Assembly: GCA_945638575.1 (NCBI GenBank)
Contig: CALZDP010000004.1
Coordinates: 8,485 to 72,484, forward strand
Reading direction: 5' to 3'
Length of the DNA stretch: 64,000 nt
Source: an uncultured Clostridia bacterium
GTDB taxonomy: Bacteria; Bacillota; Clostridia; Christensenellales; Borkfalkiaceae
Shown here: positions 20,364-55,457 of the stretch, in pieces
Position numbering within the stretch: position 1 is the stretch's first letter
Layout of the letters: every line of letters starts with the position of its first letter
Notes under the pieces: model-generated
Databases searched by the model: none
Told to the model about the DNA's origin: nothing
What the model saw: only the letters and a program-made list of their open reading frames with translations
Translations under genes and position numbers: made by a program

Positions 20364-21790
20364 TTGCTTACCCCTTGTAAAAGATTTGATTTTTTACCCG
20401 ATTTGGTTACTTCCGTTAAAGGAAGGTTGTTGCATTTTGCTATTATTTCTGCAACGTAAGGTTGACAAAAACCGCCCTGACATCTGCCCATTCCGGCACG
20501 AGTACGGCGTTTTACGCCGTCGACCGTGGTTGCGCGAGGGTTTTCGGTACAAGCGCAAATGATTTCGCCCTCGGTAATCTGCTCGCAACGGCAAATTATT
20601 CTGCCGTAAGTCGGATCTTTTTTGATTATTTGGTTCTTTTCTTCGTCCGTTAAATTTTTGAAAAAGTAATCTGGACGGCGGTAAGGATTGAATTCAACGT
20701 TTTTATTAAGCGGTAAAAGTGCGCCTATAAGCCCGTTAACCACATATTTTGCTATTGCCGGCGCACTTGTAAGACCGGGGGATTCGATACCTGCGCAGTT
20801 TATCAAGCCTTCTACCTTTGGGCTCTTTTCAACGATAAAATCGTGCCTGTCGGAATACGCCCTTATGCCGGCAAAGGAAGTTATCGTGTTATAAAAAGGT
20901 ATGTTTTTACACATCTTTTTTGCCTTTTCGATAACCCAATTTAAGCCTTCCTGCGTAGTTTCGGTGTCGGGTATATCCATTTCTTCGGCGGTAGGACCGA
21001 GCAATATGTTGTTATCTACGGTGGGAAGCACCAAAACACCTTTGCCGAGTTTGGTGGGCGTAAAGAAGAGCGTGCGTGTCACAAAGCCCGCACATTCACG
21101 GTCAAGCAAAATATATTCGCCCTTTCTTGCCCCTATTTTTATGCTGTCATCACCGAAAAATTCGGCAACTTTACCGCTGTAAAGACCTGCGCAGTTGACA
21201 ACAATTTTACCTTGCACCTGTCTGCCGTCGCTTGCGGTTACCGTAAACGCACCTTTTTCTTTTTTGGCGGAAACCGCTTCAAAATCGGTATACAAAACCG
21301 CGCCGTTATCCATGGCGTTGCCGATTAAAGATATGGTAAGTTCATACGGGCAAACAATTCCGCCCGTTTTTGCGTAAAGAGCGCCTACAGCCTCGTCGGA
21401 AAGGTTAGGTTCTAATTCCCTTAACTCTTCGGCGGAAATTATTTCAAGTTCGCCGACGCCGTTTGCCTCTCCGCGTGCTTTCAGGCTTTGCAAGGTGTTT
21501 AAATCTTCATCGGAAAAGGCAACTACCAATGAGCCGTTCTTTTTATATTTTACGCCGAGTTCTTTGCAAATGCCTTCCATCATAAGGTTGCCTTCAACGT
21601 TGAATTTCGCCTTTAAAGTACCTTCCGCGGCGTCGAAGCCTGCGTGTACCACGCCGGAATTTGCACGGCTTGCGCCCATACAGACGTCGCTTTCCTTTTC
21701 TAAAAGGCAAATCTTCAGATCATACTTACTTAACTCGCGAAGAACGCTTGCGCCGATCACTCCGCCGCCGATAACCAAAACATCAAACAT
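20360..21790 (-). CDS. FAD-dependent oxidoreductase, glycerol-3-phosphate dehydrogenase-like with BFD-like [2Fe-2S] domain
   Basis: N-terminal VIGGGVIGAS FAD motif and a C-terminal CRCEQITEGEI...CQGGFC BFD-type cysteine pattern. Confidence 0.8.
   Translation of the reverse strand: MFDVLVIGGGVIGASVLRELSKYDLKICLLEKESDVCMGASRANSGVVHAGFDAAEGTLKAKFNVEGNLMMEGICKELGVKYKKNGSLVVAFSDEDLNTLQSLKARGEANGVGELEIISAEELRELEPNLSDEAVGALYAKTGGIVCPYELTISLIGNAMDNGAVLYTDFEAVSAKKEKGAFTVTASDGRQVQGKIVVNCAGLYSGKVAEFFGDDSIKIGARKGEYILLDRECAGFVTRTLFFTPTKLGKGVLVLPTVDNNILLGPTAEEMDIPDTETTQEGLNWVIEKAKKMCKNIPFYNTITSFAGIRAYSDRHDFIVEKSPKVEGLINCAGIESPGLTSAPAIAKYVVNGLIGALLPLNKNVEFNPYRRPDYFFKNLTDEEKNQIIKKDPTYGRIICRCEQITEGEIICACTENPRATTVDGVKRRTRAGMGRCQGGFCQPYVAEIIAKCNNLPLTEVTKSGKKSNLLQGVSK
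20715..20738 (+). repeat. 24-nt motif copy inside the G3P-dehydrogenase-like CDS (AAAAGTGCGCCTATAAGCCCGTTA), read on the coding strand as ...NGLIGALL...
   Basis: Read directly; the protein shows VVNGLIGALLPLNK. Confidence 0.9.
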
Positions 21791-21823
21791 ATTTTTTCCT
21801 TTTGCCGTTTAACGACGGCCGTA

Positions 21824-22636
21824 TTACAAAATTATTTTTTCAATACCTTCAAACACGAAGGCGGGCTTTATTTGAAATTCCTGTATATCCTTTAAAGTTG
21901 CTTCTCCGCTTAAAACGCAAACGGTGTCTATACCTGCGTTGTAACCGGAAGTTATGTCCGTAGACAGTCTATCGCCGATAACCACAGTTTCCTCTTTTGT
22001 TACCCCTTCGCGCTCCATTGCGCTGTAAAGCATTTGCGGTTTGGGTTTACCGATATATATGGGGTTTTTGCCCGACGCTTTGAATAGCCCGAAACACATC
22101 GAGCCAAGATCCGGCACGAAGCCGTAATTTACCGGACAAACGTAGTCGGGGTGAGTGGCGTAATAGGTTGCGTTTGTAGTGCAAAGCATTTTGCTTGTAG
22201 TGCTTAACTTTTCAAAAGTAAGTTCGGTATCGAAGCCTAAAAGTATAGCCTTAGCCGACTTATCGTAAACCGTGGTAATATTCAAACCGCCGTCTTTAAG
22301 TTCCTTTATAAAAGAGGCAGTGCCCTGCGCGTAAATAAGCGCGCCTTGGTAAGTCTTTTTTAAAAGCATTACGGAAGCGTTTGTGGAAGTAAAAAAGTTA
22401 TCTTCATTGGCTTTTATGCCCATTTTTTCGACCTTTTTAACATAATCCGCTACCGATTTAGAGGAATTGTTTGTTACAAACACATATTTGGCGTTATGCG
22501 ATAAAATCGAATCCAAAAAAGCCGCAGTACCGCCGAAAACGGTATTTTCGTTATAAACAGTTCCGTCCATATCAAGAAGAAACAGTTTTTTATTTTTAAG
22601 CCTTTCGGCGTTTTGGTTAAAAAAGTCGGTTAACAC
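21824..22636 (-). CDS. HAD-IIA family hydrolase (NagD-like sugar phosphatase)
   Basis: DMDGT motif I (FLLDMDGTVY), TNNS motif II, GKP and GDRLSTD motifs. Confidence 0.8.
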   Translation of the reverse strand: MLTDFFNQNAERLKNKKLFLLDMDGTVYNENTVFGGTAAFLDSILSHNAKYVFVTNNSSKSVADYVKKVEKMGIKANEDNFFTSTNASVMLLKKTYQGALIYAQGTASFIKELKDGGLNITTVYDKSAKAILLGFDTELTFEKLSTTSKMLCTTNATYYATHPDYVCPVNYGFVPDLGSMCFGLFKASGKNPIYIGKPKPQMLYSAMEREGVTKEETVVIGDRLSTDITSGYNAGIDTVCVLSGEATLKDIQEFQIKPAFVFEGIEKIIL

Positions 22637-22764
22637 CTTTCCTTTCCCCTTTTAAATAGTGAATTTACAACAATTTCGCCAAATTATAGTTTAACATACT
22701 TTTTATATAATAACAAGAATAATCGTAAAATTTTACCGCAAAAAATTATTTCGCCACGAAGGTA

Positions 22765-22799
22765 TAAAAAAATACGCCGCGAAAACGCAACGTATTTTT
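22765..22799 (-). terminator. Rho-independent terminator after the DUF2752 gene
   Basis: Minus strand TACGTTGCG-TTTT-CGCGGCGTA (two G:U pairs) followed by TTTTTTT. Confidence 0.7.
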
Positions 22800-22927
22800 A
22801 ATTTAATTTTTTAATTCAAACAAAAAAGTTGCTTACGGCGGTTTTTAGCGGAATTTTGACAATACCCCGATTTTTAAAAAGGGATACAAAGTAAAACCGC
22901 AAAGCAAAAATTGTTTTTTCTTCATCG

Positions 22928-23774: not shown

Positions 23775-23798
23775 TAATCGGCTTATAGGCCGACTTTT
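23775..23798 (-). repeat. 24-nt motif copy, reverse orientation (TAATCGGCTTATAGGCCGACTTTT), overlapping the malQ stop codon
   Basis: Read directly; the variant GCCGATTA is shared with the copy at 59898. Confidence 0.85.
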
Positions 23799-25291: not shown

Positions 25292-25315
25292 AAAAGTCAG
25301 CCTATAAGCCTGTTA
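25292..25315 (+). repeat. 24-nt motif copy (AAAAGTCAGCCTATAAGCCTGTTA), between the M18 peptidase gene and malQ
   Basis: Read directly. Confidence 0.9.
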
Positions 25316-30664: not shown

Positions 30665-30689
30665 TAAACAGGCTTATAGCCCCACTTTT
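30665..30689 (-). repeat. 24-nt motif copy, reverse orientation (TAAACAGGCTTATAGCCCCACTTTT), immediately after repeat element A
   Basis: Read directly. Confidence 0.85.
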
Positions 30690-31790: not shown

Positions 31791-31814
31791 TAACGGGCTT
31801 ATAGGCAAACTTTT
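31791..31814 (-). repeat. 24-nt motif copy, reverse orientation (TAACGGGCTTATAGGCAAACTTTT), abutting the NCS2 permease stop codon
   Basis: Read directly. Confidence 0.9.
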
Positions 31815-33436: not shown

Positions 33437-34864
33437 TTGCCTTTTTACAAAATAGCGATTAAACTACTATTGATGGATACTATGAATACAGTCGATAGAT
33501 ATTACAAAAAAATGACGGAAACTTCCGTCTATAAATTGATACTTAAACTCGGGCTTCCCACCACCATATCCATGCTTATAACCAACATTTATAATTTGGC
33601 GGACACCTATTTTGTGGGAACGCTTGGTAAAAGCGCACAAGCGGCGACCGGGGTTTTGTTTACCTTGCAGGCAATTATTCAGGCGGTTGCTTTTATGCTC
33701 GGACACGGGTCGGGCACTTACTGCTCTAAATCGCTTGCCGAAAAGGATAAAGATACCGCAACGACTTATGTTTCCACTGCATTCTTTTCGGGGCTTATCT
33801 TCGGTGGATTTTTACTTATCGCAGGACTTATCTTTTTAACCCCCTTTATGCGACTTTTGGGAAGCACCGACACCATTTTGCCTTACGCCGAAGATTACGG
33901 TTTTTGGGTTCTTATCGCCTGCCCGTTTATGATAGGTTCGCTTATACTAAACAACAATTTGCGTTATGAAGGCATTGCCATGTTTTCCATGATAGGGCTT
34001 TGCTTCGGCGGACTTTTGAACATCTTGGGCGACTACATATTTATTATGAAAATGGATATGGGCGTTTACGGCGCAGGGCTTTCGACGGCTATATCTCAAG
34101 TGGTAAGTTTTGTAATTTTGCTTGTTTTGTATATTTTTAAGGCGCAGGCGTCGCTAAAAATCAAAGCGGTAAAATTTAATCAAGAAGTTTTTGTCAATAT
34201 CATAAAGGGCGGACTGCCTTCGCTTATACGTCAAGGTCTTACCTCTTTATCCAACGGCATATTAAATAACCTGACCAAACCCTTCGGCGACGCGGCTATT
34301 GCGGCAATTAGCATTGTAAACAGGTACTCTTCCTTCGTATTGGCTATAGGCATAGGCTTGGGGCAAGGCTTTCAGCCGGTATGCTCATTTAACTACAGCG
34401 CAGGTAAAATCAAACGTGTAAAACAAGGACTTTTGTTTGTTTGGATATTCTCAACCGCGCTTGTCGGTCTTTTATCCTTTTTCGGAATAATATTCGCGCC
34501 AAACGTAATTGCGCTTTTCCAAAAAAACGATGAAGTTATTAAAATCGGCTCAACCGCGTTAAGATTTGCCTCGGTAGGCTTGCTGTTTTTATCATCGTCG
34601 ACCACCGCCAATATGCTTTATCAAAGCATAAGAAGCGCAAAAATCGCTTCTATTTTAGCCCTGCTTCGTTCAGGCCTGGTACTTATCCCCGTTTTGTTTT
34701 TGCTTTCAAACTTTTTCGGGCTTTTCGGAATACAAAGCGCACAAGGAATTTCCGACGTGATTTCCGGCATAATAAGTATCCCCTTTATAATCAGATTTTT
34801 ACGCCTTAAAACGGAAGAAATCGATCAAAAGTCCGCCTATAAGCCCGTTAACGGTCGTTTTTAA
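33437..34864 (+). CDS. MATE family efflux transporter (start codon uncertain; C-terminal tail encoded by the 24-nt motif)
   Basis: 12 TM segments; LGLPTTISMLITNIYNLADTYFVG is a MATE N-terminus. The true start is probably one of the downstream Met codons (MNTVDRYY or MTETSV). Confidence 0.8.
   Translation: MPFYKIAIKLLLMDTMNTVDRYYKKMTETSVYKLILKLGLPTTISMLITNIYNLADTYFVGTLGKSAQAATGVLFTLQAIIQAVAFMLGHGSGTYCSKSLAEKDKDTATTYVSTAFFSGLIFGGFLLIAGLIFLTPFMRLLGSTDTILPYAEDYGFWVLIACPFMIGSLILNNNLRYEGIAMFSMIGLCFGGLLNILGDYIFIMKMDMGVYGAGLSTAISQVVSFVILLVLYIFKAQASLKIKAVKFNQEVFVNIIKGGLPSLIRQGLTSLSNGILNNLTKPFGDAAIAAISIVNRYSSFVLAIGIGLGQGFQPVCSFNYSAGKIKRVKQGLLFVWIFSTALVGLLSFFGIIFAPNVIALFQKNDEVIKIGSTALRFASVGLLFLSSSTTANMLYQSIRSAKIASILALLRSGLVLIPVLFLLSNFFGLFGIQSAQGISDVISGIISIPFIIRFLRLKTEEIDQKSAYKPVNGRF
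34827..34850 (+). repeat. 24-nt motif copy (AAAAGTCCGCCTATAAGCCCGTTA) forming the last codons of the MATE gene (…QKSAYKPVNGRF*)
   Basis: Read directly; the protein tail in the ORF track ends KSAYKPVNGRF. Confidence 0.9.
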
Positions 34865-42119: not shown

Positions 42120-42692
42120 TCAATCGAAAAGTTTTTCCGCAACAAAAGTTTCATACCTTTCCTTAAGTCCGTCGATTATGGCTTCAAAACTTAAGTTTAT
42201 GTCGGAATTTTGACTTTCGATTACAATACCGCCGTTAAAATTACCGCCGTCCGCAACCTTTAAACCGAGTTCTTTTACCACCTCGAAATTATAAACTTCG
42301 CCTTTACTGAAAGGGCAGTTTTTAGGTATGACAACGGTTGCGCCTTTTTGGGCGTTTTCCTTAATTAAACGGCAGATAATCGACTTATAGGTCGACTTAT
42401 CCAGTTTGTTTAATTTTTCGAGCGCGTTTAAAAAGACTTCCGAGACCGCTTCGGTTTTTTTAGACAAATAAAGTTTTTTACCGTCTAACGAAGCAACGAC
42501 TTTTCTTCTTCTTATAGTTTCGGCTTCTTCATCGCAAAACTCTTTACGGGCGGACGTCAAAATCTCTTCCGCATTTTTTTGTGCGGAAGATATCGCCATA
42601 CGATAGTCGTTGTCTGCTTTATCGGTAACTTCCGTTTTATAAAGATCGGCGTCTTTTAAAATTTGCTCTATAATTTTATCTTTTCCGTCCAT
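42120..42692 (-). CDS. ntpE: V-type ATP synthase subunit E
   Basis: 190 aa with an N-terminal long helix and a C-terminal globular part; operon position. Confidence 0.8.
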   Translation of the reverse strand: MDGKDKIIEQILKDADLYKTEVTDKADNDYRMAISSAQKNAEEILTSARKEFCDEEAETIRRRKVVASLDGKKLYLSKKTEAVSEVFLNALEKLNKLDKSTYKSIICRLIKENAQKGATVVIPKNCPFSKGEVYNFEVVKELGLKVADGGNFNGGIVIESQNSDINLSFEAIIDGLKERYETFVAEKLFD

Positions 42693-43255: not shown

Positions 43256-45205
43256 TTATTTGTCGGCAAAATAAATATTGTCGAACTTCGTTCCGAAAGG
43301 TTGGAAAAGTTCCCCTTCGCCTTCGTAGAATCTTCCGTAGAATTCAATGTACTGCAATCTTGAATCGTGAATGTACGCGCCCAATAAACCCATTGCTATA
43401 TTGAACACGTGTCCGATTATGAGTATCAAAACGCCTACTATCGACATCGCGCCGTGCATCATCGGAAGCGACATTGAAGTTACTATCTGCGCTATCTGCG
43501 CGCCGGAAAGCATTAAACCGTAAAGCCTTGCGTAACTTAAAATATCCGACATATAGTTGATAAGTCCGTATACCGCGGAAAAACTTTTTGAAACCTTTCC
43601 GAAGCCTTTTTCGTGCCTGCCGGCGGTCAATGCGCCGACGACTACCGAAACGCCCATTATGATTGCGGAAGCCGTTGTTAATCCGTGGGTTACGCCGGCA
43701 AGATCCAATACAAGAAGTATAAGTCCGCCTAAGAACACCGCCCAAACAACGCCGTCGAAGATTCCGTCTAAAATATTTCCATTGCTAAAGCACGCCGCGG
43801 CTTTCATAAGTAAACTTGCCATAATCTGCACTACGCCCATACCCAAACTTAGCAAAAGCAGGGTGGGAACGGAAATACCTGCAACGTCTAATTTGTGGTT
43901 TATGGCATCGGGCATAATGGGTTGACTTAACAGCCCCAACTGTCTTAAAAGGCCGTAGCCGAAGAAACTGTCGAACAGCACACCGAAGATAAAGGTAAAA
44001 ATTCCGCCGAAAGCAATAATATTGCACAGCCTTGCGGTGCCCGTATCCCTGCCGATTTTTTTCGCCATCAAATAACCGACAACCGTCATAATGATACCGT
44101 ATCCCATGTCCGCCATAATAAAGCCCATGAAAACGCTGAAGAATATCATCATTATAAAGTTTTGGTCGATGGTACCGTACTTCGGCGGTGAATAAAGGTT
44201 TGTAACGAACTCAAACTGACGGGTAACTTTATTGTTTTTCATAAGCGTCGGCGCAAATTCGTCTTTGCTTATTACTTCAAACTGCGTGTAAACCTTAACG
44301 CCTGCGTTTTTAAGCGCTTCTTCAACCCTTTCGGTCGCCTCGGTAGGAACGTAGGCTTCCATTAAAAAGGTGCTGTCCGTCCTGTCGAAACCTTTTTTGT
44401 CTTTACCCTTCTCAAGTTCGAAAGAATACCTGTCGAGAAGTATCTTCATATCCTTTAAACGGTCTGCGTAAGAAAGAATTCTTTGGTCAAGGACTAAAAG
44501 TTCTTTTTCCGTCTTTTTTATAAGGGAATTTAATTCGCCGACCTTGTCTTTTGCGGTAAAGTCGCCCGAAAAGGAAGTGCGGTTAAAGCCGTATGTCGAT
44601 AAAAGAGCAAGCGTTTCCGCCTCGTCTTTAACGTGATAAATAACCGAAACCACAGCCGTTATCGAATCGCAACATTCCAAATTAACGATGCAAGGGGCTT
44701 CTGTTTCCTCCAACGCTTTTGCTTGCGCGGTCTTCATAAGCCCTAATAAAACCTTTGTGTTAGCGGTATCTTTAAAAACGGAAAATTTAGATTTTAGCCC
44801 GATAAACGGCTTATAGGCGTTCATTTCGTTAACAAGCGACGCCATATCGGCTTTTAAATCCACCGTCTTTTTACTGATCTCATAAAGGTCGTCTACGATA
44901 GGATTTATTTCTTCTTCCAAAGAAAGCGCAGAAACAAAGTTGTCGTAAGTTACGCCGTAAACTTCTTCTTTGACAGGCTCTGCAGACTTATCGATTTTTG
45001 CGATACGATTTACGTTATTAAATAAAAAATCACAAGCAAAACTAAGTCTGTCGAATTTATCGACAAACAGGTCGCTGCTTTGTTCAGTTACGCTGTCGCT
45101 TGAGATTATCTGCACCGAACAGGTCTTGTGCAGAGCGGCAAGGATAGTATCTTCCTCGCTTTTAACGCCCACAAGCTTCATGCGGGACATTTTAGCAATC
45201 GCCAT
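43256..45205 (-). CDS. ntpI: V-type ATP synthase subunit I (a-like stator/proton-path subunit)
   Basis: 649 aa with a soluble N-terminal half, a polytopic C-terminal half, and the conserved YARLYGLMLSG arginine motif. Confidence 0.9.
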   Translation of the reverse strand: MAIAKMSRMKLVGVKSEEDTILAALHKTCSVQIISSDSVTEQSSDLFVDKFDRLSFACDFLFNNVNRIAKIDKSAEPVKEEVYGVTYDNFVSALSLEEEINPIVDDLYEISKKTVDLKADMASLVNEMNAYKPFIGLKSKFSVFKDTANTKVLLGLMKTAQAKALEETEAPCIVNLECCDSITAVVSVIYHVKDEAETLALLSTYGFNRTSFSGDFTAKDKVGELNSLIKKTEKELLVLDQRILSYADRLKDMKILLDRYSFELEKGKDKKGFDRTDSTFLMEAYVPTEATERVEEALKNAGVKVYTQFEVISKDEFAPTLMKNNKVTRQFEFVTNLYSPPKYGTIDQNFIMMIFFSVFMGFIMADMGYGIIMTVVGYLMAKKIGRDTGTARLCNIIAFGGIFTFIFGVLFDSFFGYGLLRQLGLLSQPIMPDAINHKLDVAGISVPTLLLLSLGMGVVQIMASLLMKAAACFSNGNILDGIFDGVVWAVFLGGLILLVLDLAGVTHGLTTASAIIMGVSVVVGALTAGRHEKGFGKVSKSFSAVYGLINYMSDILSYARLYGLMLSGAQIAQIVTSMSLPMMHGAMSIVGVLILIIGHVFNIAMGLLGAYIHDSRLQYIEFYGRFYEGEGELFQPFGTKFDNIYFADK

Positions 45206-45512
45206 TTATAACCTTCCCTACGATTTCATCGGATAATTCATTGATTTTTTGCAACAAAGAGTTGTAAAGCGCGTCGGAATCGTTTTTTGCGGTTGCAATA
45301 ATTTCGGCGTAAAGTTTTTCAACCTTTTTAGCGGTGGATACTTTATATTCCTTTTTAAGTTCTTTAACGGAGGCTTCCGCTTGCTTTAAAAGGGAATCGC
45401 ACTTTTCTTCGGCTTCTTTGCTTTTTTGCGTAGCGTATTCGTTCGCAGAAAGTCTTATTTCAGCCGCCTTTTCTTCGGCGAGTTTTATTTCTTCCAAAAC
45501 TTGTTCTATCAT
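45192..45512 (-). CDS. V-type ATP synthase subunit G/H-like coiled-coil stalk protein (first gene of the operon)
   Basis: 106 aa and K/E/A-rich helical. It occupies the position of E. hirae NtpF and overlaps ntpI by 14 nt. Confidence 0.65.
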   Translation of the reverse strand: MIEQVLEEIKLAEEKAAEIRLSANEYATQKSKEAEEKCDSLLKQAEASVKELKKEYKVSTAKKVEKLYAEIIATAKNDSDALYNSLLQKINELSDEIVGKVINGDC

Positions 45513-45710: not shown

Positions 45711-45735
45711 TAACGGGCTTATAGCCCTGCTTTTT
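45711..45735 (-). repeat. 24-nt motif copy, reverse orientation (TAACGGGCTTATAGCCCTGCTTTTT), upstream of the V-ATPase operon
   Basis: Read directly. Confidence 0.9.
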
Positions 45736-46007: not shown

Positions 46008-47360
46008 ATGCAACCCGAACCTGAGCCTGACAGTATGATTTTTGTGCAGTTATTCGTACTGATCATTCTTGTTTTGCTATCCTCTTTCTTTTCAGCGAGC
46101 GAAACCGCTTTTACCTCTATTAACCGTTCAAGGTTAAAAACCCGTATGCAAGACGACAAGCGCACGCCGTCGCAACAGAAAAGATCGGAAAAAGCGCTTA
46201 AAATGTCGGACGACTACGACAGAATTCTGTTCACACTTTTAATCGGCAACAACATCGTAAACATCACCGCAACCACCATCTGCACCTTGCTTTTCATAAA
46301 CATTATGAACGGAAGCGAGGTTGCGCCTACCGTTTCAACCATTGTGCTTACCGCCGTCATATTGATCTTCGGCGAAATTATCCCTAAGGCCCTTGCAAAA
46401 GAAAGGCCGGAAGCCTATGCGGAAACCTTTTGCGGACTTATTCAATTTTTTATCTATATATTGTGGCCGATTTGCATAATCTTCAGAGGTCTTAAAAAGT
46501 TACTTGTAAAAATCTTTAAACTTGAAAAAGCCGAAGGGGTTACCGAAGAGGAAATTCTTAACATCGTTGAAGAAGCAAGCGAAGACGGCGCGCTGAATAA
46601 AAGCGAGTCCGAACTTATTTCCAACGCCATAGAGTTTCACGATTGCGAGGTCGGTGAAATTTTAGTACCGCGCGTAAACGTCGTCGCTATCAAACTTGAT
46701 ACGCCGATGGAAAAAATTAAAACCGTGTTCTTGAAAAACGGATATTCTCGTTTGCCGGTTTACACAGACACTATCGACCGTATTGTCGGTATGGTACACG
46801 AAAAAGACTTTTTAAATTCGTTAGACCGCGGCGATAAAAATATTTCTTCCATTATTAAAAAGGTGGCTATCGCTACCGAACATATGAAGATTTCAACCCT
46901 GCTTAGGGTTTTCCAAAAATCCAAAGTACACATGGCTGTCGTCGTCGACGAATACGGCGGAACGCTCGGCATCGTTACCTTAGAGGACGTTTTGGAAGAA
47001 CTTGTCGGCGAGATTTGGGACGAGCACGACGAAGTTGTGGAATACTTTGAAAAGATTTCCGACAACACTTACCGTGTTGACGCCAACGCCGATTTAGGAG
47101 ACTTTTTCGAACTGTTTTCCATTGAAGCGGAAGACGATGATTTTGACTCTCAAACCGTAGGCGGTTGGGTTGTGGAAAAGTTGGGCGATATGCCGAAACG
47201 CAACTCTTCATTCGACTTTGAACATTTACACATCGTGGTTACGCGTTGCAGTCAAAGAAAGGTCGGCGAACTTAAAGTCGTCGTTTTGGACGAAGAGGCT
47301 TCCGACAAAGCGGAAACGGAAATTATGGAACAGGAAGAAACCATGCTCGATGACAATTAA
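46008..47360 (+). CDS. Hemolysin/CNNM family protein (DUF21 - CBS pair - CorC_HlyC)
   Basis: 450 aa: an N-terminal 4-TM DUF21 (SASETAFTS), CBS pair region, and C-terminal CorC_HlyC (GGWVVEKLGDMPK). Confidence 0.85.
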   Translation: MQPEPEPDSMIFVQLFVLIILVLLSSFFSASETAFTSINRSRLKTRMQDDKRTPSQQKRSEKALKMSDDYDRILFTLLIGNNIVNITATTICTLLFINIMNGSEVAPTVSTIVLTAVILIFGEIIPKALAKERPEAYAETFCGLIQFFIYILWPICIIFRGLKKLLVKIFKLEKAEGVTEEEILNIVEEASEDGALNKSESELISNAIEFHDCEVGEILVPRVNVVAIKLDTPMEKIKTVFLKNGYSRLPVYTDTIDRIVGMVHEKDFLNSLDRGDKNISSIIKKVAIATEHMKISTLLRVFQKSKVHMAVVVDEYGGTLGIVTLEDVLEELVGEIWDEHDEVVEYFEKISDNTYRVDANADLGDFFELFSIEAEDDDFDSQTVGGWVVEKLGDMPKRNSSFDFEHLHIVVTRCSQRKVGELKVVVLDEEASDKAETEIMEQEETMLDDN

Positions 47361-47462: not shown

Positions 47463-48020
47463 TTAATATAAAAATTCGACCTTCAAAGTAAAATCATCAT
47501 CGCCTATTTTGTAATTTATGTCGTAAAAATAAATGACTTTGCCCGTAAAACACAGATTTATAAAAACTTCTTTGCAATCGCTTACGGGATTTATGAAAAA
47601 GTCGGACAAATACTTTTGCTTTACGGCGGCGCTAAAAACCTTAGCGGAAGCAGACTTTTGGCTTTTATCCGTAAAATAACGATTGCGAAACTTAAAATAA
47701 ACGGGCGGACTTTTGGCGGCGAAAGTGTAATTAAAAGTTTCATACACGTCTTTTGACAAAGGGTTTTCGGATAATTTTTGCTCGGTTACCGTAACCGAAT
47801 ATCCGCCGTCCGATTTTTCGTAAAAGGAGATTTTTTTGTTTACCGTTTCGCCGTAATAGGTTTGGGTAAGCGTTATTTTGATTTTATCCGCTTTATCGAA
47901 ATTTTCAAACGCGCGCTTTGCCGAATTAACGGGACTAAAGTATACCGCGGTTATCGCGGTTGCAATAATGCCGACCGAAAGGACTGAAGATAATAAAATT
48001 ATTAAAACTTTTTTACTCAT
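47463..48020 (-). CDS. Hypothetical membrane-anchored protein, translationally coupled to the giant surface protein gene
   Basis: N-terminal signal-anchor MSKKVLIILLSSVLSVGIIATAITAVYF; ATGA start/stop overlap with the upstream gene. Confidence 0.6.
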   Translation of the reverse strand: MSKKVLIILLSSVLSVGIIATAITAVYFSPVNSAKRAFENFDKADKIKITLTQTYYGETVNKKISFYEKSDGGYSVTVTEQKLSENPLSKDVYETFNYTFAAKSPPVYFKFRNRYFTDKSQKSASAKVFSAAVKQKYLSDFFINPVSDCKEVFINLCFTGKVIYFYDINYKIGDDDFTLKVEFLY

Positions 48021-51000
48021 GACTTGCCCCCTTTCGGTTTTAGCGCGATAGCCGTAAAAAACGTTAGCAGCAAAAGGGATAAATCCCCTAAGTTTTTTGT
48101 ACCCAAAGCGCCGTTTGCGGTTTCGTAATTTTGTGTTTTATCGTTATAAAAATCTTCGTAAGCCTTTATATATTGCTCGATAACCGACTTATAGGCGGAT
48201 ATTTTGTTAATTTGGGCATTATCGCCTTCGGTAAAAAAAGCGACAACTTCCTTAATTTTCAACAGATTAGTCATTTTTAAAGACTCTTCTTTTTTAAGTT
48301 CTTCAAGCAAAGCGGAAATTTTATCTACTTTACCTTTTACGTCGACGCAGGCTGTAAAGGTTTTTACCGCTTCGCCCTTATAGTTATCGTCTATAACGGT
48401 TATTTTTACTGAAAATTCCCCCTCCTTATCGGGGTTTGAAACAAGCGTTTCTCCATAATAATATTCTTCTTTAAGTTTAGCGTTATATCCTAAAAGTCGA
48501 GCTATAGGTCGGTTTTTGCCTATTACGATAAACTTTCCGTAATCGGAATCAACATCTATATATTGACCTATGTCCGCCTTATCTACCGTTAAAATAAAGG
48601 CGTTGGAATTTGTAAATTCAAAGTATCTGTCGTCAAGATAAACTTTTACGGTATAACTTCCGGCGTTTACTACCTTATTGTCGTTATCGCCCGTTACGGT
48701 TATATAAAAGCCTTGCGGAGATAGTCCGCCAAGACCGCCGATGTTTTTATTTACGTCAAAAAATTCTATTTGATTTCCGTTGTAAACAAAATCTGTTTTC
48801 ACGTCTTTAAGCCATACCTGTTTTTTGGTAACAAAAAGATTGCATGATTTAGCGGTAACGCAATAATTGGGGTTACAGTCAAAAATGTACAAGCGGTAAT
48901 TGCCTATCATGTCGGGAGCGCCGAAAAACTCTGTGTCGATTTTCAGGTCGTCCTTTTTTGCAAAAAACTCAAGCGACAACTCGTCGCCGTCTAACAGGCT
49001 TCCGCTTGTTACCGTAAAGGAAACCTTTTTTGCGATTTCATTAAAAGTGTCGGTAAATTCCGCATAGACGTCATCAAGTTCAAGGGTTACTTCACGCTTT
49101 GTAATCGTCAAAAGGGAGTGATCGCCGTATTCGTAATCAAAATTTACGGTGAAATTGTCGTTTATTTTTTGGGCGTAAATTTTGTAACTTCCTACTGCGT
49201 TTTGGTTGTCGCAAGTAATTTTAATCACATTTTCAAGACATATGCCGTACGGCAGATCTGTCGACGCAGCCGTTATATTTATATTTTCCCCGTACACCGC
49301 ACTGACGTTTGGAAGGCTTACGGTAATATTAAGCGGCAAAATTTCCGCATTTGCACCGATAAAATCAATGCGGTAGTTTGGATTTGTCGGCGTTGCAAAA
49401 ATTTTATAAACGCCGACCGTGTCGCCTTTTTCACGATATAAATCGACAATCTTTGAAAGTTCGTCAAAGTAGGCAAGGCTTCCTTTGATTACTCGGACGG
49501 TAAGTTCAAAATCTTCGCCGTATTTAGCCGAAACGGGATTTGCCGTAACCGTAATCGGCCTTGGCAATATATCGTATTTTGCGTCTATTACGATAACGTC
49601 ATAATTGTCATTGACACATTCCGCGCTTATTTTATAACTTCCCACCCCTTCGCCTTGTTCGCGAAAGAAAGTCAAAATTTTGCCTATACTGTCAAACTCG
49701 CAAACATAGCCTTTTATTATACTGCAGGAAATCGCCTCGTCAAAATCGCCGTAAAACTTTATCTTATCATCTATTTTGACGGTTATACGGCGCGGTAAAA
49801 CCTTTATTTGTTTGAAGGAATTTATAAAGTAATTCGTGTTTAAACATTCCGCCGAAACAAATTCGTTTACGGTAAATTTAGCATTGCAAACTTCAAGCGG
49901 AATATCGGAAACAAAATTCAAACTTTCCGCCCTATCGCCGTAGTATATGTAATCTTCGACGGCGGTAATGTTTACGGGACAGGGCTTAACGGTAAAGTTT
50001 GCATAAAACTTGCTTTCGTTAATCTCTGCCGTAACAAGATAACTTCCTTTATTTAAAATTTTCGAAACAACACAGCCGTCAAGTGTTACGGTTATATTTA
50101 CGGAAGGGGTAACGGCAGTATTCAAATTGTCGATTGCGGAAACGGTAAAATCCAAACTTTTGCCGTCGTATACCTTTTCGTCTCCGCTTGTAAAACCGAA
50201 ATTAACGGTATATCTTCCGCCCTTTAAAACGGTAAGGGTTGCGGTATTGCCTTCCGCTATAAAATTATCGTTATCGAAAACAGGCGTAACTGTGTAAACG
50301 CCTTCGGTCAAAATTTCGGATAAGTTGCCCGATAGGTCGATTATTGCGCTGTTTTTGTCATTTGAAACCTTGAAATATTTTATGGCGTTATAGTCCGAAA
50401 CGTAATCGAAAGGGATAATATTACATTCGTTTAGATACACGGTTTTATCTTTAATTTTTACGGTTATCTTTCTTTTTGCGATTTCGTAATTTGCATTGGC
50501 AAAAATTACGTCATAAAAAGGGCTGTCGCATTTACCCGTAACAGAATAATTGCCTGCAACGGAATTATCAGTTGCGGTTGTGTAAAGGGTAACGGACGGT
50601 TGGTCGGAAAGTTCTTCGGTAAATCTTCCGGTAAGCGGTTTAATCGCGTCAAGATAAACACCGCTTTTGCTATCGATAATATAGGTAACTTTTTTAGGGT
50701 TGACGTTTGTCAAAACCTTTTCCAAAGTATATGAAACGCCGTTAAAGTTGCCCGTGTATTCCGCCCTAACCGTAATATCGCCCAAACTGTAGCTATAATC
50801 GTAAAGGGTTGCCGTTTGGATGATTTTAGTACCGTCGACAGATAAGGTTACAACCTTTGTCGAAGTATCGCCGTAAGTTACGTTTTGCGCGCAAAAGTCG
50901 ATAACGTAACTAAAATCGCAGTAACCGTCTAATACGGTTTTTATAAAAGATAAATCCTCGGCGTTTCTGTTTTCGGTTAAATTCAGGTACTCGTTATAGA

Positions 51001-52948
51001 CGGAAGTTACCGATTCTTTACTCAAATGTCCGCCTATAAGCCCGTTATAGTTGTTTTTATAGTCGTCAAAACTATTTAGATAAAAATAAACTTTATGGGT
51101 TAAACTATCCAAAATATACCCGTCGCTTGTAAAATCGGCAACGGCAACATAGTCGCTTGTTTTGTTGTAATCGGGGGTAACTTCTATTCTTTCGGTCCGT
51201 CCGCCGTAGAAACTAACGATAGCGAAAAACTTACGCGCAAAACCTTCTTTAATGACGTAATCGTCATCTAATACTATGCTTTTTACAACGCTGTCAAGCA
51301 AAACGTCGCTATCATAAACCACTTCCGCTTTACGGCTGAAATTATCTTTGCCTGCAGTATGGTAAGTTACGCCGTCGGACAAATAAATTTCGGCGGTAAA
51401 TTTACCGTCTTTATTAGTGTAATAATCTTTGCCGTTAAGGTTTACGCACACGTTTTTAACTGCTTCACCTATGTAAAAGGTTACGTCCGAAACATAACCG
51501 CCATCTGTAAAACATAAAAACCTGCCCGTACAAGTTTGGTTGATTTCAATAATATGATTTTTATATTCTGTCGGCAAATCGCCGTAAATAACCTTGTCTA
51601 TGCTAACCGTTTTTAATAAAAACGGGCTTATAGCCCCGCTTTTATAGGTTTTGCCCCTTTCAAGAGCGATAAACCCGTTAAGCGCATAGGCTTTTGCGGA
51701 CGCCGTAAATTCACAAAGATTACCGAATTTTTTAACGGAAAAGCCTTCCGTAACGGTATCCGTTAACAGGGCGGTTTCGGACACGTTTATAAGTCCGTTT
51801 TGCGATTCGGTTTGCACCGTTCCGTAAAAACGTCCGTTAATGTTTAAAGTGCCGTTTACTATCAAACTTCCGCTGCCGCTTAAACCCATTTTTTGTAAAG
51901 TTTGGCTGTCTAAATAGGATACGCCCGAATATTCTCCGCTGTAAAAACCGTCGTAAACGCCAAACGTTCCGTCTACATTTAAACTTGCACCGTCAAAAAC
52001 CTTAAAAGTTGCGCCGGTCATTATTTTAAGTTTTGCGTTTTCGGTTACGTTAAAATTGCCTTCCTTTACGTTGATATCCCAAAAATAAGGAACGGACAGA
52101 AAGCGGTTAAAAGAGGAATAGGTTTTATCAAATACAAAATCCGCGCTTTTTACGCTTACGTTGCCGTAAAAGGATAAATCCGTTTTGCATAGGTTGTCGA
52201 TACCGCATACTTTAGCGTCAAGATTTTGATTTTTGTCATAGGAAATTTCCGCCCTTCCGTCCGTAAGAGCGAACAAACCGTCGCTTGCGATAAAATTTAT
52301 AAATGTTTCGCTCGGCAAAACGCCCAAAAAACGACCGTTTGCGTTTATAGTCCTTTTGATTTTTACGGTGTTTAAATAATATTGATTAAACGGAAGGTTT
52401 CCCCTTTTATAGATATCATCCGCAACTTCACTAAAATAGTCGGGTATAAAAAGCGGTTCGTAAAAGGTTCCGTTTACTGTAATACAGCCTTCGCCGACGA
52501 CTAAAGCATAAACTTCCAAAACGCCGTTCACGGTAATATTGCCGTTACAAACCACAGCGTCGGGCGTAGCGGAAGTCAAATCATCTTTATTGCCGATTAG
52601 CATTTTACCGTCGACGACTAAATTTACATCGCTATTTATTACCAAACCGCAGCAGTCCGCACTTAAAGTTACGCCCTTTGGAACGGTAAGGTCGGAATCG
52701 ATTACTCCGTTTTCTATATAAACGGTTTTACCGACGTCGGCTTTATTTAAAGCCTCGCTTAAAGTATAAACCTTGCCGTCAAGCGTGGCGGTAATTTTTG
52801 AATTACCGTCAAAATTTTTCCTAAGGCCGTCTATAAGCCCGTTAGCGCAATAAATCGGCATGGTTTTTATGATAACCGAAACACCTATAATCAAAAGAAA
52901 AGTCAAAAAGATTTCGGCTATTTTTGAAATTTTTTCTGAAAAATTCAT
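48017..52948 (-). CDS. Giant (1643 aa) cell-surface protein with beta-helix-like N-terminal region and multiple MBG (YGx-type) repeat domains
   Basis: N-terminal signal-anchor. Repeated modules of the form ...KYGE/YGD...GSL...D....L.REKG..VGxYKI......NPNY.I.....A...ILP..ITV (e.g. ITVTANPVSAKYGEDFELTV...GDTVGVYKIFATPTNPNYRIDFIGANAEILPLNITV). C-terminal hydrophobic helix plus basic tail. Confidence 0.8.
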   Translation of the reverse strand: MNFSEKISKIAEIFLTFLLIIGVSVIIKTMPIYCANGLIDGLRKNFDGNSKITATLDGKVYTLSEALNKADVGKTVYIENGVIDSDLTVPKGVTLSADCCGLVINSDVNLVVDGKMLIGNKDDLTSATPDAVVCNGNITVNGVLEVYALVVGEGCITVNGTFYEPLFIPDYFSEVADDIYKRGNLPFNQYYLNTVKIKRTINANGRFLGVLPSETFINFIASDGLFALTDGRAEISYDKNQNLDAKVCGIDNLCKTDLSFYGNVSVKSADFVFDKTYSSFNRFLSVPYFWDINVKEGNFNVTENAKLKIMTGATFKVFDGASLNVDGTFGVYDGFYSGEYSGVSYLDSQTLQKMGLSGSGSLIVNGTLNINGRFYGTVQTESQNGLINVSETALLTDTVTEGFSVKKFGNLCEFTASAKAYALNGFIALERGKTYKSGAISPFLLKTVSIDKVIYGDLPTEYKNHIIEINQTCTGRFLCFTDGGYVSDVTFYIGEAVKNVCVNLNGKDYYTNKDGKFTAEIYLSDGVTYHTAGKDNFSRKAEVVYDSDVLLDSVVKSIVLDDDYVIKEGFARKFFAIVSFYGGRTERIEVTPDYNKTSDYVAVADFTSDGYILDSLTHKVYFYLNSFDDYKNNYNGLIGGHLSKESVTSVYNEYLNLTENRNAEDLSFIKTVLDGYCDFSYVIDFCAQNVTYGDTSTKVVTLSVDGTKIIQTATLYDYSYSLGDITVRAEYTGNFNGVSYTLEKVLTNVNPKKVTYIIDSKSGVYLDAIKPLTGRFTEELSDQPSVTLYTTATDNSVAGNYSVTGKCDSPFYDVIFANANYEIAKRKITVKIKDKTVYLNECNIIPFDYVSDYNAIKYFKVSNDKNSAIIDLSGNLSEILTEGVYTVTPVFDNDNFIAEGNTATLTVLKGGRYTVNFGFTSGDEKVYDGKSLDFTVSAIDNLNTAVTPSVNITVTLDGCVVSKILNKGSYLVTAEINESKFYANFTVKPCPVNITAVEDYIYYGDRAESLNFVSDIPLEVCNAKFTVNEFVSAECLNTNYFINSFKQIKVLPRRITVKIDDKIKFYGDFDEAISCSIIKGYVCEFDSIGKILTFFREQGEGVGSYKISAECVNDNYDVIVIDAKYDILPRPITVTANPVSAKYGEDFELTVRVIKGSLAYFDELSKIVDLYREKGDTVGVYKIFATPTNPNYRIDFIGANAEILPLNITVSLPNVSAVYGENINITAASTDLPYGICLENVIKITCDNQNAVGSYKIYAQKINDNFTVNFDYEYGDHSLLTITKREVTLELDDVYAEFTDTFNEIAKKVSFTVTSGSLLDGDELSLEFFAKKDDLKIDTEFFGAPDMIGNYRLYIFDCNPNYCVTAKSCNLFVTKKQVWLKDVKTDFVYNGNQIEFFDVNKNIGGLGGLSPQGFYITVTGDNDNKVVNAGSYTVKVYLDDRYFEFTNSNAFILTVDKADIGQYIDVDSDYGKFIVIGKNRPIARLLGYNAKLKEEYYYGETLVSNPDKEGEFSVKITVIDDNYKGEAVKTFTACVDVKGKVDKISALLEELKKEESLKMTNLLKIKEVVAFFTEGDNAQINKISAYKSVIEQYIKAYEDFYNDKTQNYETANGALGTKNLGDLSLLLLTFFTAIALKPKGGKS
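51024..51047 (+). repeat. Motif copy inside the giant surface-protein CDS (AAATGTCCGCCTATAAGCCCGTTA), encoding ...YNGLIGGH...
   Basis: Read directly; the protein shows NNYNGLIGGHLSKE. Confidence 0.9.
51618..51643 (-). repeat. Motif copy inside the giant surface-protein CDS (AAAACGGGCTTATAGCCCCGCTTTT), encoding ...KSGAISPFL...
   Basis: Read directly; this uses a different reading frame from the other in-gene copies. Confidence 0.85.
52825..52844 (+). repeat. Partial motif copy inside the giant surface-protein CDS (GGCCGTCTATAAGCCCGTTA), encoding ...ANGLIDG...
   Basis: Read directly. Confidence 0.75.
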
Positions 52949-53329: not shown

Positions 53330-54094
53330 TTATTTACGTTTTCTTTTTGCTTTGGTGTCGTCTATAATTTTTTTGCTTTGCTCTACAAGGTATCTGTTAA
53401 GTTCGTAAACAACTTCCCCAGGACCTTTAAGCGAGAAAATGAAACTGTTTTTTTGTTTTAATTTTTCGGCATTCTGTTTAATGTTAAGCCTAAACTGTTC
53501 GTATTTAACGACGATGTCGTTTTCGGTCGCCCATTTTTTGATTTTTGCAACCACCCTGAAGGAGTAGAAGTTATCCAAAATGAAGATACCGCTAAGTATA
53601 CCTAAAATGAAATAGAATTCCGTATGTACCGCAACGAATTCCGCCATAACGGAGACGTAAGGATGCAATAAAAGGTTATAAACGGCGCCGATTACGCCCC
53701 AGATTAAGGAAAACAGCGGACAAATAATGCCTTGAATATTGCCCTTTCGGTCGGAATAATCCCAAAGTTTTACCTTAAGCCCTTTTATAAAAATAATGCC
53801 TGTTACGTATTCGAGCAAGGTCATAAGAAGGGTAATAACCGCAATCAAACAAACCTTTTGCAAAAAAATGTTTTGGATAAATGAAAGGTCTATAGAGGAC
53901 ATTCCGTACAATCCCAAAAGCCCCAACCCGTATAACGGCAACCACGGACCTGCCAAAAAGCCGGGATTAACCCACTTTTTATGGGCAAATCTTCTGAAAA
54001 ACAGTTCCATTACCCAACCGCACATAGCCCCGAAGAAAAATATCTGCACAAGTTTTATTAAAATTATCATAAACTTACCTTTTGTTAATTTCAA
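53330..54094 (-). CDS. Putative ABC-transporter type IV family membrane protein (PF06541-like)
   Basis: 254 aa; FFFGAMCGWVMELFFRRF...NPGFLAGPWLPLYG signature recalled from this family. Confidence 0.6.
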   Translation of the reverse strand: MKLTKGKFMIILIKLVQIFFFGAMCGWVMELFFRRFAHKKWVNPGFLAGPWLPLYGLGLLGLYGMSSIDLSFIQNIFLQKVCLIAVITLLMTLLEYVTGIIFIKGLKVKLWDYSDRKGNIQGIICPLFSLIWGVIGAVYNLLLHPYVSVMAEFVAVHTEFYFILGILSGIFILDNFYSFRVVAKIKKWATENDIVVKYEQFRLNIKQNAEKLKQKNSFIFSLKGPGEVVYELNRYLVEQSKKIIDDTKAKRKRK

Positions 54095-54139
54095 AAATCA
54101 CAGAACTTTCAGCCCTTGAATTGTAACCCTTGTTCGGTC

Positions 54140-54715
54140 TTATAAAGAATTATAAAGATTTTGTACGAGTGAAAGGAATTCGTCGGGTTCGGAAAGTTCC
54201 AATTTTATTTTATCGTTTATGCCGGTTACGGTAACCGTATTACGTTTTTTTGTTACGTCAATCAAATCTTCAAGGCGTATGACCTTGCTTTCGGTGTAGT
54301 TGGCTTTACCGCAGGCAATAATTTTATCGCTTGTTAAAATTACCGTAAAGTTACCTGTACGCACCGCCTTACGATAAATGCAAATGCCCCAGAAAACTTC
54401 CGGCACGATATGCGCTATAAGGCAGGCTACCGCAATAACTGTGGTAAAAGTGGTGTTTAGGTCGGCTATAATTTTAGTGAACAGCGACGAACTGAATATA
54501 AATGCGTCCGCACCGACGGAAATCACGGCGCAGACAAAAAGCAAAACCGTTTCTATATACGGGCTTTTTACCTTTTTGGGCTTTACTATTGCTATAAGTT
54601 TGGTCGGCGGAAACAACGTTGCGATAGGAAGTTCCTCGTCAAGCATGGGGTGGTCTTCGGCAAGAAATATCTCCCGTTCCTTTTCCGTTTTCTTTTTGGT
54701 TTGGAAATTACTCAT
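54140..54715 (-). CDS. Hypothetical membrane protein (two TM helices plus a small C-terminal domain)
   Basis: ORF with an 8-nt overlap to upstream tcdA; two hydrophobic segments. No family recognised. Confidence 0.55.
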   Translation of the reverse strand: MSNFQTKKKTEKEREIFLAEDHPMLDEELPIATLFPPTKLIAIVKPKKVKSPYIETVLLFVCAVISVGADAFIFSSSLFTKIIADLNTTFTTVIAVACLIAHIVPEVFWGICIYRKAVRTGNFTVILTSDKIIACGKANYTESKVIRLEDLIDVTKKRNTVTVTGINDKIKLELSEPDEFLSLVQNLYNSL

Positions 54716-55457
54716 TAACTTCTCCTTTACTTTGAATTAAATCTTTTATTACCTCGGAAGCAATAATAAAACCTGCCACCGGCGGTACGAAAGATATGCT
54801 TGCAGGCACACGCTTATCGCCGAGCGGAGAGATAGGCTCTTCTTCGGAATACACTGTTTTAAGACTTTCTATATTACGTTTACGCAGTTCCCTTCTTATG
54901 ACCTTTGCAAGCGGACAGACTTTGGTTTGATAAATATCCCCTACTTTAAAAGCGGTGGGATTCAACTTGTTTCCCGTACCTAAACAGGCGATAACGGGCT
55001 TATAGGCGGACTTTGAGGCTTCGCACAGTAAAATTTTCGCCGTTACCGTATCCACGCAATCCACTACGTAATCGTAACTTTGAAAATCAAAAAGGCGCAA
55101 GGTTTCCGCCGAAAAATATACGGGGAATTTTTCCACTTCGATATTCGGATTTATGTCCTTAAGCCTGTCGTAAGCAACGTCGGTTTTTAATTTTCCGACG
55201 GTAGAGTTAAGCGCGTAAAGTTGTCGATTTATGTTGGTAACGTCAACTTTGTCTCCGTCGCAGATAACAAGTTTGCCAACCCCTGCGCGGGCAAGGGCTT
55301 CCGCCGTAAAAGACCCGACGCCGCCAAGCCCGAAAAGGGCGACTGTTTTATGAGCGAGCAAAAGACGCTTATCTTTACCTATTAAGTTATCTTCCCTTGA
55401 AAAAATATCAGACAATTTTACCACCGTCGATTTTAAAAGTTTTGTAATCTGCGTCAT
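54708..55457 (-). CDS. tcdA: tRNA threonylcarbamoyladenosine dehydratase (ThiF/MoeB-like E1 fold, TcdA)
   Basis: FSREDNLIGKDKRLLLAHKTVALFGLGGVGS Rossmann motif and DCVD. The real start is probably the GTG/TTG near 55418-55427, not ATG 55457. Confidence 0.8.
   Translation of the reverse strand: MTQITKLLKSTVVKLSDIFSREDNLIGKDKRLLLAHKTVALFGLGGVGSFTAEALARAGVGKLVICDGDKVDVTNINRQLYALNSTVGKLKTDVAYDRLKDINPNIEVEKFPVYFSAETLRLFDFQSYDYVVDCVDTVTAKILLCEASKSAYKPVIACLGTGNKLNPTAFKVGDIYQTKVCPLAKVIRRELRKRNIESLKTVYSEEEPISPLGDKRVPASISFVPPVAGFIIASEVIKDLIQSKGEVNE
54992..55014 (-). repeat. Motif copy inside tcdA (TAACGGGCTTATAGGCGGACTTT), encoding ...KSAYKPVI...
   Basis: Read directly; the protein shows ASKSAYKPVIACLG. 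Confidence 0.9.

Follow-up and report, generated by a model that had tools for sequence, protein, structure and literature searches.

Why would one short DNA word recur, in different reading frames and on both strands, inside unrelated genes of a single bacterium? The question is raised by a 64,000-nucleotide stretch of DNA from an uncultured Clostridia bacterium (contig CALZDP010000004.1, positions 8,485 to 72,484), which we call the window. The word, or motif, has the 14-base core CTATAAGCCCGTTA; as a 13-mer it is CTATAAGCCCGTT(A), with the reverse complement TAACGGGCTTATAG, and it is not palindromic. We show that the motif is a signal in the DNA that is spread over the genome and specific to one lineage. 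Very probably, it acts at the level of DNA and is read by a protein, and is neither a peptide nor an RNA structure. As to its role, our tentative answer is a tag by which the bacteria would recognize their own DNA.

The window has a G+C content of 41% and carries recF, dnaA, mnmG, a V-type ATPase operon, and ordinary housekeeping genes. It contains 11 exact copies of CTATAAGCCCGTT, as compared to 0.00 per shuffle (none in 100 shuffles). With up to two mismatches allowed, there are 24 copies, while 2.3 are expected. A scan with a position weight matrix that was trained only on copies from outside the window gave 24 family members at 12 bits or above, versus 0.05 per shuffle. The density in the window is thus one exact copy per 5.8 kb and one family member per 2.7 kb. 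Overall, there is one copy each 3–6 kb, in both orientations, and unascertained loci from five other species have 2–6 copies per 13–21 kb. Over the 56 kb to one side (the left) of dnaA, exact copies are split 5+/5- and family members 12+/10-, so we found no replication-strand skew among family members there and rejected a polar word of the Chi or KOPS (FtsK-orienting polar sequence) type.

Among 150 exact copies in the window and related loci, 52 (35%) lie inside open reading frames (ORFs). Three of the six frames of the 14-mer carry a stop codon (CTA-TAA forward; TAA-CGG and TTA-TAG reverse), as the original prediction had stated, and its further claim that the three stop-free frames are all used in genes also holds: the 52 coding copies use these frames only and encode NGLI (28 copies), (A/G)YKPV (18 copies), or ISP(F/L) (6 copies). 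The coding copies that it cited are all present in the frames it gave (at 20725, 51034, 52831, 51621, and 54993), and the partial matches that it noticed in ntpI (44804–44816) and in a giant gene (48182–48194) are real copies with two mismatches.

If selection acts on the DNA string and not on a peptide, as was proposed, then the codons of the motif should be unusually constant, and distant homologues need not encode the same residues. Both checks came out in favor of the proposal. Among orthologues that are about 70–75% identical, all 17 of the motif columns that can be compared have identical codons, versus 124 of 443 columns elsewhere (a simple binomial test on the pooled rate gives ~2e-9). 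By gene, identical codons make up 5/5 of the motif and 23/127 of the columns outside it in tcdA, and 12/12 versus 101/316 in the giant gene. The tcdA codons GCC TAT AAG CCC GTT are invariant in five species, and the neighboring synonymous sites vary. (One motif-rich relative, at locus L119, has no copy in tcdA and encodes KSSNKPVI there; we refer to loci in related genomes by such numbers.)

The comparison with distant homologues gives the same picture. KSAYKPVI, the peptide encoded in tcdA, aligns without gaps or indels to RRNKIPLV in TcdA from E. coli. Outside of the clade, this stretch of TcdA is hypervariable (AAGVPVIS, EANTPIIS, AAEVRIIS, and others among 120 homologues). Inside the clade (at least ~67% identity), most TcdA proteins have KSAYKP(V/I)I, along with minority variants and intermediates such as KSLNKPII. 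Similarly, a GlpA-like protein has NGLI in 20 of 20 homologues from the clade and in 0 of 100 outgroup homologues, most of which have ETLV or a variant (EELV, etc.) at that site. The giant gene (48017–52948) encodes a 1,643-amino-acid, adhesin-like protein with MBG domains. It is fast-evolving, with just 19% of aligned columns identical among three species, and the motif sites are conserved islands within it (12 of 15 residues identical). It holds five family members, in both orientations, and where we checked, their positions are kept in at least one relative. Outside of genes, the copy after mnmG is conserved in position in five species.

These alignments show that the coding copies arose in place, by substitution, and were then held at the nucleotide level. 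Because the motif's codons are frozen and the peptides they encode are absent from outgroup homologues, the constraint is on the DNA and not on the protein. The contrary explanation is that the shared nucleotides are a coincidence, arising from a peptide motif under conservation or from an artefact of codon usage. NGLI and AYKPV are indeed ordinary peptides and are in part conservative replacements. However, one DNA word gives three unrelated peptides in three frames on two strands, 65% of the copies are non-coding, the outgroup homologues do not have the peptides, and the motif's codons are invariant beside synonymous sites that vary. We consider this explanation refuted by the TcdA and GlpA-like outgroups and by the frozen codons, and we give it almost no credence.

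The 24 family members in the window are as follows, with the families of the host genes assigned by Pfam.

9756–9768, plus strand: one mismatch (CTATAAGACCGTT), 35.6 bits; the TAA of the reverse complement is the stop codon of the gene at 9767–10306.
10372–10384, plus strand: exact, intergenic; 22 nt past the stop of a SufBD-like gene (10407–11333); AGG subtype with a mini-hairpin.
16197–16209, plus strand: minor dialect (CTATAGGTCGATT) flanked by AAAAAGT and TTTTT; intergenic; 21.1 bits.
16982–16994, minus strand: exact, intergenic; 8 nt past the stop of a peptidase M3 gene (17003–18697).
18727–18739, plus strand: one mismatch (CAATAAGCCCGTT), 39.0 bits; 10 nt past the stop of a DUF1667 gene.
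19641–19653, plus strand: degenerate (CTCTGTGCCCGTT) with full flanks, 31.4 bits; within a Pyr_redox_2 gene (19119–20363).
20725–20737, plus strand: exact; within the GlpA-like DAO/BFD gene (20360–21790), where the opposite strand reads VVNGLIGAL (NGLI); kept in the orthologue at L109.
23776–23788, minus strand: minor dialect (CTATAAGCCGATT), 40.5 bits; 8 nt past the stop of a 4-alpha-glucanotransferase gene.
25302–25314, plus strand: one mismatch (CTATAAGCCTGTT), intergenic, 37.1 bits.
30667–30679, minus strand: one mismatch, intergenic, 31.3 bits.
31792–31804, minus strand: exact; in a convergent intergenic region, with the two stops at 10 nt and 64 nt.
34837–34849, plus strand: exact, the sixth exact coding copy; makes up the last nine codons (KSAYKPVNG*) of a MatE gene (33437–34864).
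38030–38042, plus strand: weak, degenerate, and borderline, as its 12.7 bits equal the null maximum; within an ORF (37686–39074) of the V-type ATPase operon.
42378–42390, minus strand: degenerate (CTATAAGTCGATT), 16.6 bits; within an ORF (42120–42692).
44804–44816, minus strand: two mismatches; in ntpI (NAYKPFIG); the orthologue at L030 has the identical two mismatches.
45712–45724, minus strand: exact; intergenic between divergent genes at 45192–45512 (minus) and 46008–47360 (plus).
48182–48194, minus strand: two mismatches; in the giant gene (ISAYKSVIE); L117 has an exact copy at the orthologous site.
48502–48514, plus strand: minor dialect (CTATAGGTCGGTT), 15.3 bits; in the giant gene.
51034–51046, plus strand: exact; in the giant gene, on the opposite strand (NGLIG); kept in L117 and with one mismatch in L120.
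51621–51633, minus strand: exact; in the giant gene, on the same strand (SGAISPFL); kept in L117 and L120.
52831–52843, plus strand: exact; in the giant gene, on the opposite strand (NGLID); kept in L117 and L120.
54993–55005, minus strand: exact; in tcdA, of the ThiF family (KSAYKPVI); the exact core is also present in L022.
59908–59920, plus strand: minor dialect; between mnmG and a GATase gene; position kept in L115, L117, L119, and L120.
61920–61932, plus strand: exact; the TAA of the reverse complement is the stop codon of the gene at 61931–62851.

There are no family members at 1–9700, where the average for the window predicts about 3.6. This motif-free part spans an operon for an Opp-like ABC transporter (772–8232). 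As L084, from a relative within the clade, has kept the operon, there is no obvious sign that it is foreign.

How much of the sequence around the core is conserved? From 148 distinct exact copies in the window and the clade loci, we obtained a consensus of about 36 bp, AAAAGTssGs-CTATAAGCCCGTT-ATCGnCnnTTTTT. (More finely, the 5' part ahead of CTATAAGCCCGTT is AAAAGT(c/g)(g/c)G(G/C).) The specific part spans positions -10 to +25 (36 bp). Summed over positions, it has about 45 bits of information, a sum that counts 13 core positions and 3 flank positions that the search pattern had set in advance; about 14 bits come from the unascertained flanks. Around 13 bits are enough to mark a few hundred sites. 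The coding copies have the same flanks as the consensus. By eye, the motif bears a partial resemblance to the consensus sequences of the DnaA box, the IHF site, cre, and the Spo0A box.

The flanks allow some folding. In the subtype whose 5' flank is xGGG-C (42 of 98 intergenic copies), CGGGCT-ATA-AGCCCG can form a mini-hairpin with a stem of 5–6 bp, and the consensus of this subtype has a folding energy of -10.8 kcal/mol in both orientations. The CCGC-C subtype (about 40% of intergenic copies) does not form the hairpin (-3.5 and -4.8 kcal/mol; z = -1.3 and -0.2 relative to shuffles). We also considered an outer hairpin between the A-tract and the T-tract that bracket the element and rejected it: the self pairing is 5.0, versus 4.89±0.10 in chimeras, and across four registers, the arms show no covariation, with Watson-Crick frequencies equal to the marginal expectation. 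Since these arms do not covary, we view the element as a linear sequence and not as a structure. The window had 0 matches to Rfam at the gathering score.

The majority of the copies are intergenic, with 98 of the 150 exact copies (65%) in the ~14.5% of the DNA that lies between genes, an enrichment of about 11-fold. (In the window alone, 5 of 11 exact copies are intergenic.) In intergenic regions between tandem genes, 56 of 62 copies are closer to the upstream stop codon, with a median distance of 24 nt from the stop and 105 nt to the following start. Convergent regions have as many copies as their length predicts, and divergent regions are depleted (6 versus 15 expected). Within 40 nt after stop codons, 33 copies are in the same orientation as the gene and 22 are in the opposite orientation. 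In some cases, the TAA of the motif or of its complement is itself the stop codon of the upstream gene (9756–9768, 61920–61932, and six further cases in the other loci). Because copies adjoin stop codons, are depleted from divergent regions, and have mixed orientations, we rejected the idea that the motif is a promoter with TATAAG as its -10 box.

The placement after stop codons raises another explanation, namely that the motif is a transcription terminator, either weakly intrinsic and bidirectional (an A-tract, a short GC hairpin, and a T-tract) or dependent on a factor or a roadblock, with the coding copies being incidental. Like Rho-independent terminators, which lie ~8–30 nt after stops, the motif has an A-tract, a short GC stem, and a T-tract, at a similar distance from the stop codon, and the GGG subtype folds in either orientation. 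Also, canonical hairpin-plus-T terminators were found by a strict scan at just 16 of 123 gene ends (from the window, L115, L117, L119, L120, and L123), as compared to 28 of 123 gene ends with the motif family. Unlike these terminators, however, the motif conserves sequence and not pairing, it occurs in both orientations, and copies are kept inside genes, where a terminator should be selected against; instead, those copies have frozen codons. The hairpin is out of reach for the CCGC-C copies, the T-tract of the forward orientation lies about 10 nt from the stem, and the arms do not covary. Independent terminators are not depleted where the motif is present (6 of 28 motif-bearing ends versus 10 of 95 others). 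Overall, we think that a terminator is an improbable explanation for the motif, although termination may be a secondary or co-opted function.

We made three further observations about terminators. First, 16 canonical terminators at 123 gene ends are fewer than would be expected for a Firmicute, and the idea that the motif substitutes for them is unsupported, as motif copies and canonical terminators are found together no less often than expected. Second, we saw no inverted-repeat pairs of copies that would form terminators among the copies that we inspected, but we made no systematic test. Third, the 3' end of mnmG in the outgroup locus L121 (5410–5447, corresponding to 59891–59965 of the window) is a canonical and perfect bidirectional terminator, AAAAAGTCCGCG-TTAACGAAGTTATA-CGCGGACTTTTT. 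Its arm (AAAAAGTCCGCG) is the 5' flank of the motif, and the reverse complement of the core matches its loop at 10 of 14 positions. This counts in favor of a link to termination and may hint, to judge from the sequences, that the word evolved from a family of terminators.

Does the conservation end with the 36-bp element? Around the copies, A/T content rises and falls about every 11.5 bp, locked in phase to the motif on both sides. The power of this periodicity is 0.125 and 0.135 on the two sides, versus null maxima of 0.018 and 0.028, and it is present if coding copies or intergenic copies are analyzed alone. Control A-tract anchors had about 100-fold less periodic power, which rules out a generic periodicity of the genome as the source. 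The phasing is strongest to about ±70 bp, is detectable to about ±120 bp, and is lost by ±160–200 bp. Its two sides mirror each other around +7.5 to +8, at the middle of the 36-bp specific part. Such phasing suggests that double-stranded DNA is bent or wrapped on a protein surface, and we infer that the motif is read as double-stranded DNA by a putative protein that bends or wraps the flanking DNA. The intergenic majority, the ~36-bp conserved length, and the ~200 bp of helically phased A/T tracts were all absent from the original prediction.

DNA gyrase is one protein that might read such a site. The gyrase motif of E. coli has a 36-bp center and two 47-bp periodic arms within a 130-bp footprint, and repetitive extragenic palindromic (REP) elements and the BIME-2 class of bacterial interspersed mosaic elements (BIMEs) are intergenic targets of gyrase (PMC6379681). 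The motif could then be an architectural site of this kind, that is, a rotationally positioned, high-affinity site for gyrase or for a lineage-specific nucleoid protein, located mainly at the ends of genes and operons, where it would absorb transcription-driven supercoiling or insulate units, and maintained by ordinary selection on each site. The 36-bp center and the periodic arms match the geometry of the gyrase motif, the phasing is specific to the motif, and the preference for upstream stops and the depletion from divergent promoter regions are as this role would have it. REPs and BIMEs also resemble the motif in lying at 3' ends of genes (in hundreds of copies) and in having species-specific sequences. 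Such a site remains a serious rival, given how far and how symmetrically the phasing extends and how strictly copies are placed after stops. Nevertheless, gyrase and nucleoid proteins need little information, so ~45 bits and an invariant, asymmetric 14-mer would be left unexplained, and the period is ~11.5 bp and not ~10.5 bp. REPs and BIMEs are imperfect extragenic palindromes (with sites for gyrase, IHF, and DNA polymerase I), whereas the motif is asymmetric, is palindromic in the GGG subtype only, and has about a third of its copies conserved within genes. We therefore rate an architectural site as possible but unlikely.

Which organisms have the motif? A scan for GSCTATAAGCCCGTTA, with one genome per species, found at least 111 stretches. 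Among the matches listed, most are from gut or rumen metagenome-assembled genomes (MAGs) that are labeled Christensenellaceae, Christensenella, or "Clostridia bacterium," and MAGs of the clade, from many species, often have several copies per 8 kb. We attribute to chance the matches in high-GC or unrelated genomes (Collinsella, Serratia, Rickettsia, and others), where the conserved flanks are missing. The outgroup homologues come under the names Candidatus Borkfalkiaceae and Candidatus Scatosoma. Viral contigs gave 26 single matches, none of which has the conserved flanks, which led us to reject a phage or prophage signal.

The word also has dialects (TATAAGCCCGTTA, TATAGGTCGATTA, and TATAACTTSRTTA), and all clade genomes contain the minor forms TATAAGCCGATTA and TATAGGTCGATTA. 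In 20.7 kb of the outgroup L122, whose TcdA is 64% identical, there are 11 variants of mixed kind, and the dialect of the outgroup L121 is TATAACTT(C/G)(G/A)TTA. Single genomes have extended flanks of their own. Between the stop of dnaA and the start of mnmG, L121 (7320–7440) has four tandem 30-bp units (CTTAACTTGATTAACGGGCTTTTTAAAGCC), each containing the motif in the L121 dialect along with a small hairpin.

A further explanation is a miniature mobile or copied element (a miniature inverted-repeat transposable element [MITE] or a REP-like element) that a transposase, for example RAYT, would spread in units of about 36 bp. The motif has many copies and a high information content, the CALVUR genome has near-identical 37-bp copies, some intergenic copies face gaps in relatives (for example, 5083 in L083 versus the window), and L121 has the 30-bp tandem array. 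On the other hand, coding copies lie in gap-free alignments and originated by substitution, and orthologous positions, both coding and intergenic, persist across species. We saw no covarying terminal inverted repeats, no target-site duplications, and no identity beyond ~37 bp; viral contigs have no copies with flanks; and we observed no association with a transposase, although we did not search whole genomes for transposases. A mobile element is quite unlikely.

Some MAGs that carry the motif with its full flanks are named "Parasutterella excrementihominis" or "uncultured Acidiphilium sp." (L120, CAVJMJ010000004.1; L048, CAZNKA010000036.1; CAYVKZ; and CAYZWD). Because these contigs are syntenic with the window or 68–77% identical to it, these labels look wrong. 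At 55408–58015 of the window, recF has a 50-nt overlap with tcdA and is oriented divergently from dnaA, and the gene that comes after dnaA is mnmG, not dnaN. Despite the presence of dnaA, a replication origin is not evident, as GC skew does not switch anywhere in the window.

What kind of signal, then, is this? The excess information and the in-place origin of the copies within genes point to a process that steadily drives sequences toward one word. This is what marks out the uptake signal sequences (USS) of the Pasteurellaceae (AAGTGCGGT with phased T-tracts) and the DNA uptake sequences (DUS) of the Neisseriaceae (AT-GCCGTCTGAA), which biased uptake and recombination maintain. By analogy, any change that brings a sequence closer to the preferred word would, where the protein can bear it, be over-transmitted via biased uptake and recombination. 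Biased uptake would account for the excess information, for the use of every stop-free frame, and for the location at poorly conserved residues, and also for the persistence at orthologous sites, the lineage dialects, and the absence from viral contigs. Copies at the ends of genes would be the least costly, and some of them may double as parts of terminators.

The likeness to known uptake sequences is broad. These are short, non-palindromic, over-represented words that occur in both orientations and in permissible frames. They have a similar coding share (35% for the motif versus 34.5% in N. meningitidis): 34.5–65% of uptake sequences are in ORFs, at poorly conserved residues, and none are in foreign genes (PMC2817400). 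About half are in terminators (bioRxiv 10.1101/2025.10.24.684340), and they have helically phased flanking tracts (PMC3458573). The motif shares with them many copies at 3' ends of genes, lineage dialects, phased A/T flanks, and absence from foreign or viral DNA. The original prediction had compared the coding copies to USS and DUS inside genes, and as a pattern the comparison is apt, given the coding share, the poorly conserved residues, and the enrichment at gene ends. We also compared the motif with other over-represented words: HIP1 (GCGATCGC, in cyanobacteria), Chi, and KOPS likewise occur both within genes and between them and are kept as DNA sequences, but HIP1 is an 8-bp palindrome and Chi and KOPS are 5–8 bp long and replication-strand skewed, whereas the motif is at least 14 bp long, asymmetric, and unskewed.

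Since uptake sequences share the coding share, the poorly conserved residues, the enrichment in terminator zones, the dialects, and the phased flanks, we rank first a USS/DUS-like self-DNA tag that is preferred by the putative uptake or transformation machinery of the clade. We hold this reading tentatively, as plausible but short of probable. Somewhat less likely is the fuller claim that this is the first self-recognition sequence of the DNA-uptake type outside of the Proteobacteria. An uncultured, Christensenellales-like clade from gut and rumen would then mark its chromosome every few kb with a ~36-bp word that lies at the dyad of ~150–200 bp of phased bendable DNA.

Several points weigh against a self-DNA tag or set the motif apart from known uptake sequences. 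Uptake sequences are known in two proteobacterial families only (bioRxiv 10.1101/2025.10.24.684340), and the host here, known from sequence alone, is a Gram-positive-type member of the Clostridia. The motif has a longer specific part than USS or DUS, and it is sparser, as those occur about once per 1.2 kb. The two-sided, mirror-symmetric phasing to about ±100 bp is not a described feature of USS or DUS and looks more like a DNA-wrapping complex. The intergenic enrichment and the tight placement after stops would fit a role in transcription or supercoiling as well, and the near-identical 37-bp copies within the CALVUR genome could reflect copying. To our knowledge, DNA uptake by the Firmicutes that have been studied has no sequence preference. 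A crude regular expression found no ORFs for prepilins of the GFTLxE type in 1.08 Mb of DNA from the clade (an estimated half of a genome equivalent), which is a weak negative. We found no literature that links uptake sequences to Christensenellaceae, and the string in a relevant context is absent from the searchable literature.

Whichever explanation is right, there are three implications. The word, in all its dialects, can help in practice to bin MAGs and to correct those that are mislabeled. Also, constraint on the DNA has clearly overridden the protein, in that ETLV (or a variant) in the outgroup became NGLI and a variable stretch of TcdA became SAYKPV. Locally frozen codons need not mean that a protein is conserved. 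A gyrase or nucleoid-protein site, should the motif be one, would position wrapped bacterial DNA with unusual sharpness by means of a defined sequence. If it is a self-DNA tag, it would be a third and phylogenetically remote case of sequence-specific uptake, in a phylum without any known uptake signal of the USS/DUS type, which would make the evolution of uptake specificity open to comparison. A Gram-positive-type cell would then be expected to have an uptake receptor that wraps DNA and is specific for its sequence, and the dialects would follow the splitting of lineages. These abundant, uncultured Clostridia of the gut may then exchange DNA preferentially within their own lineage.

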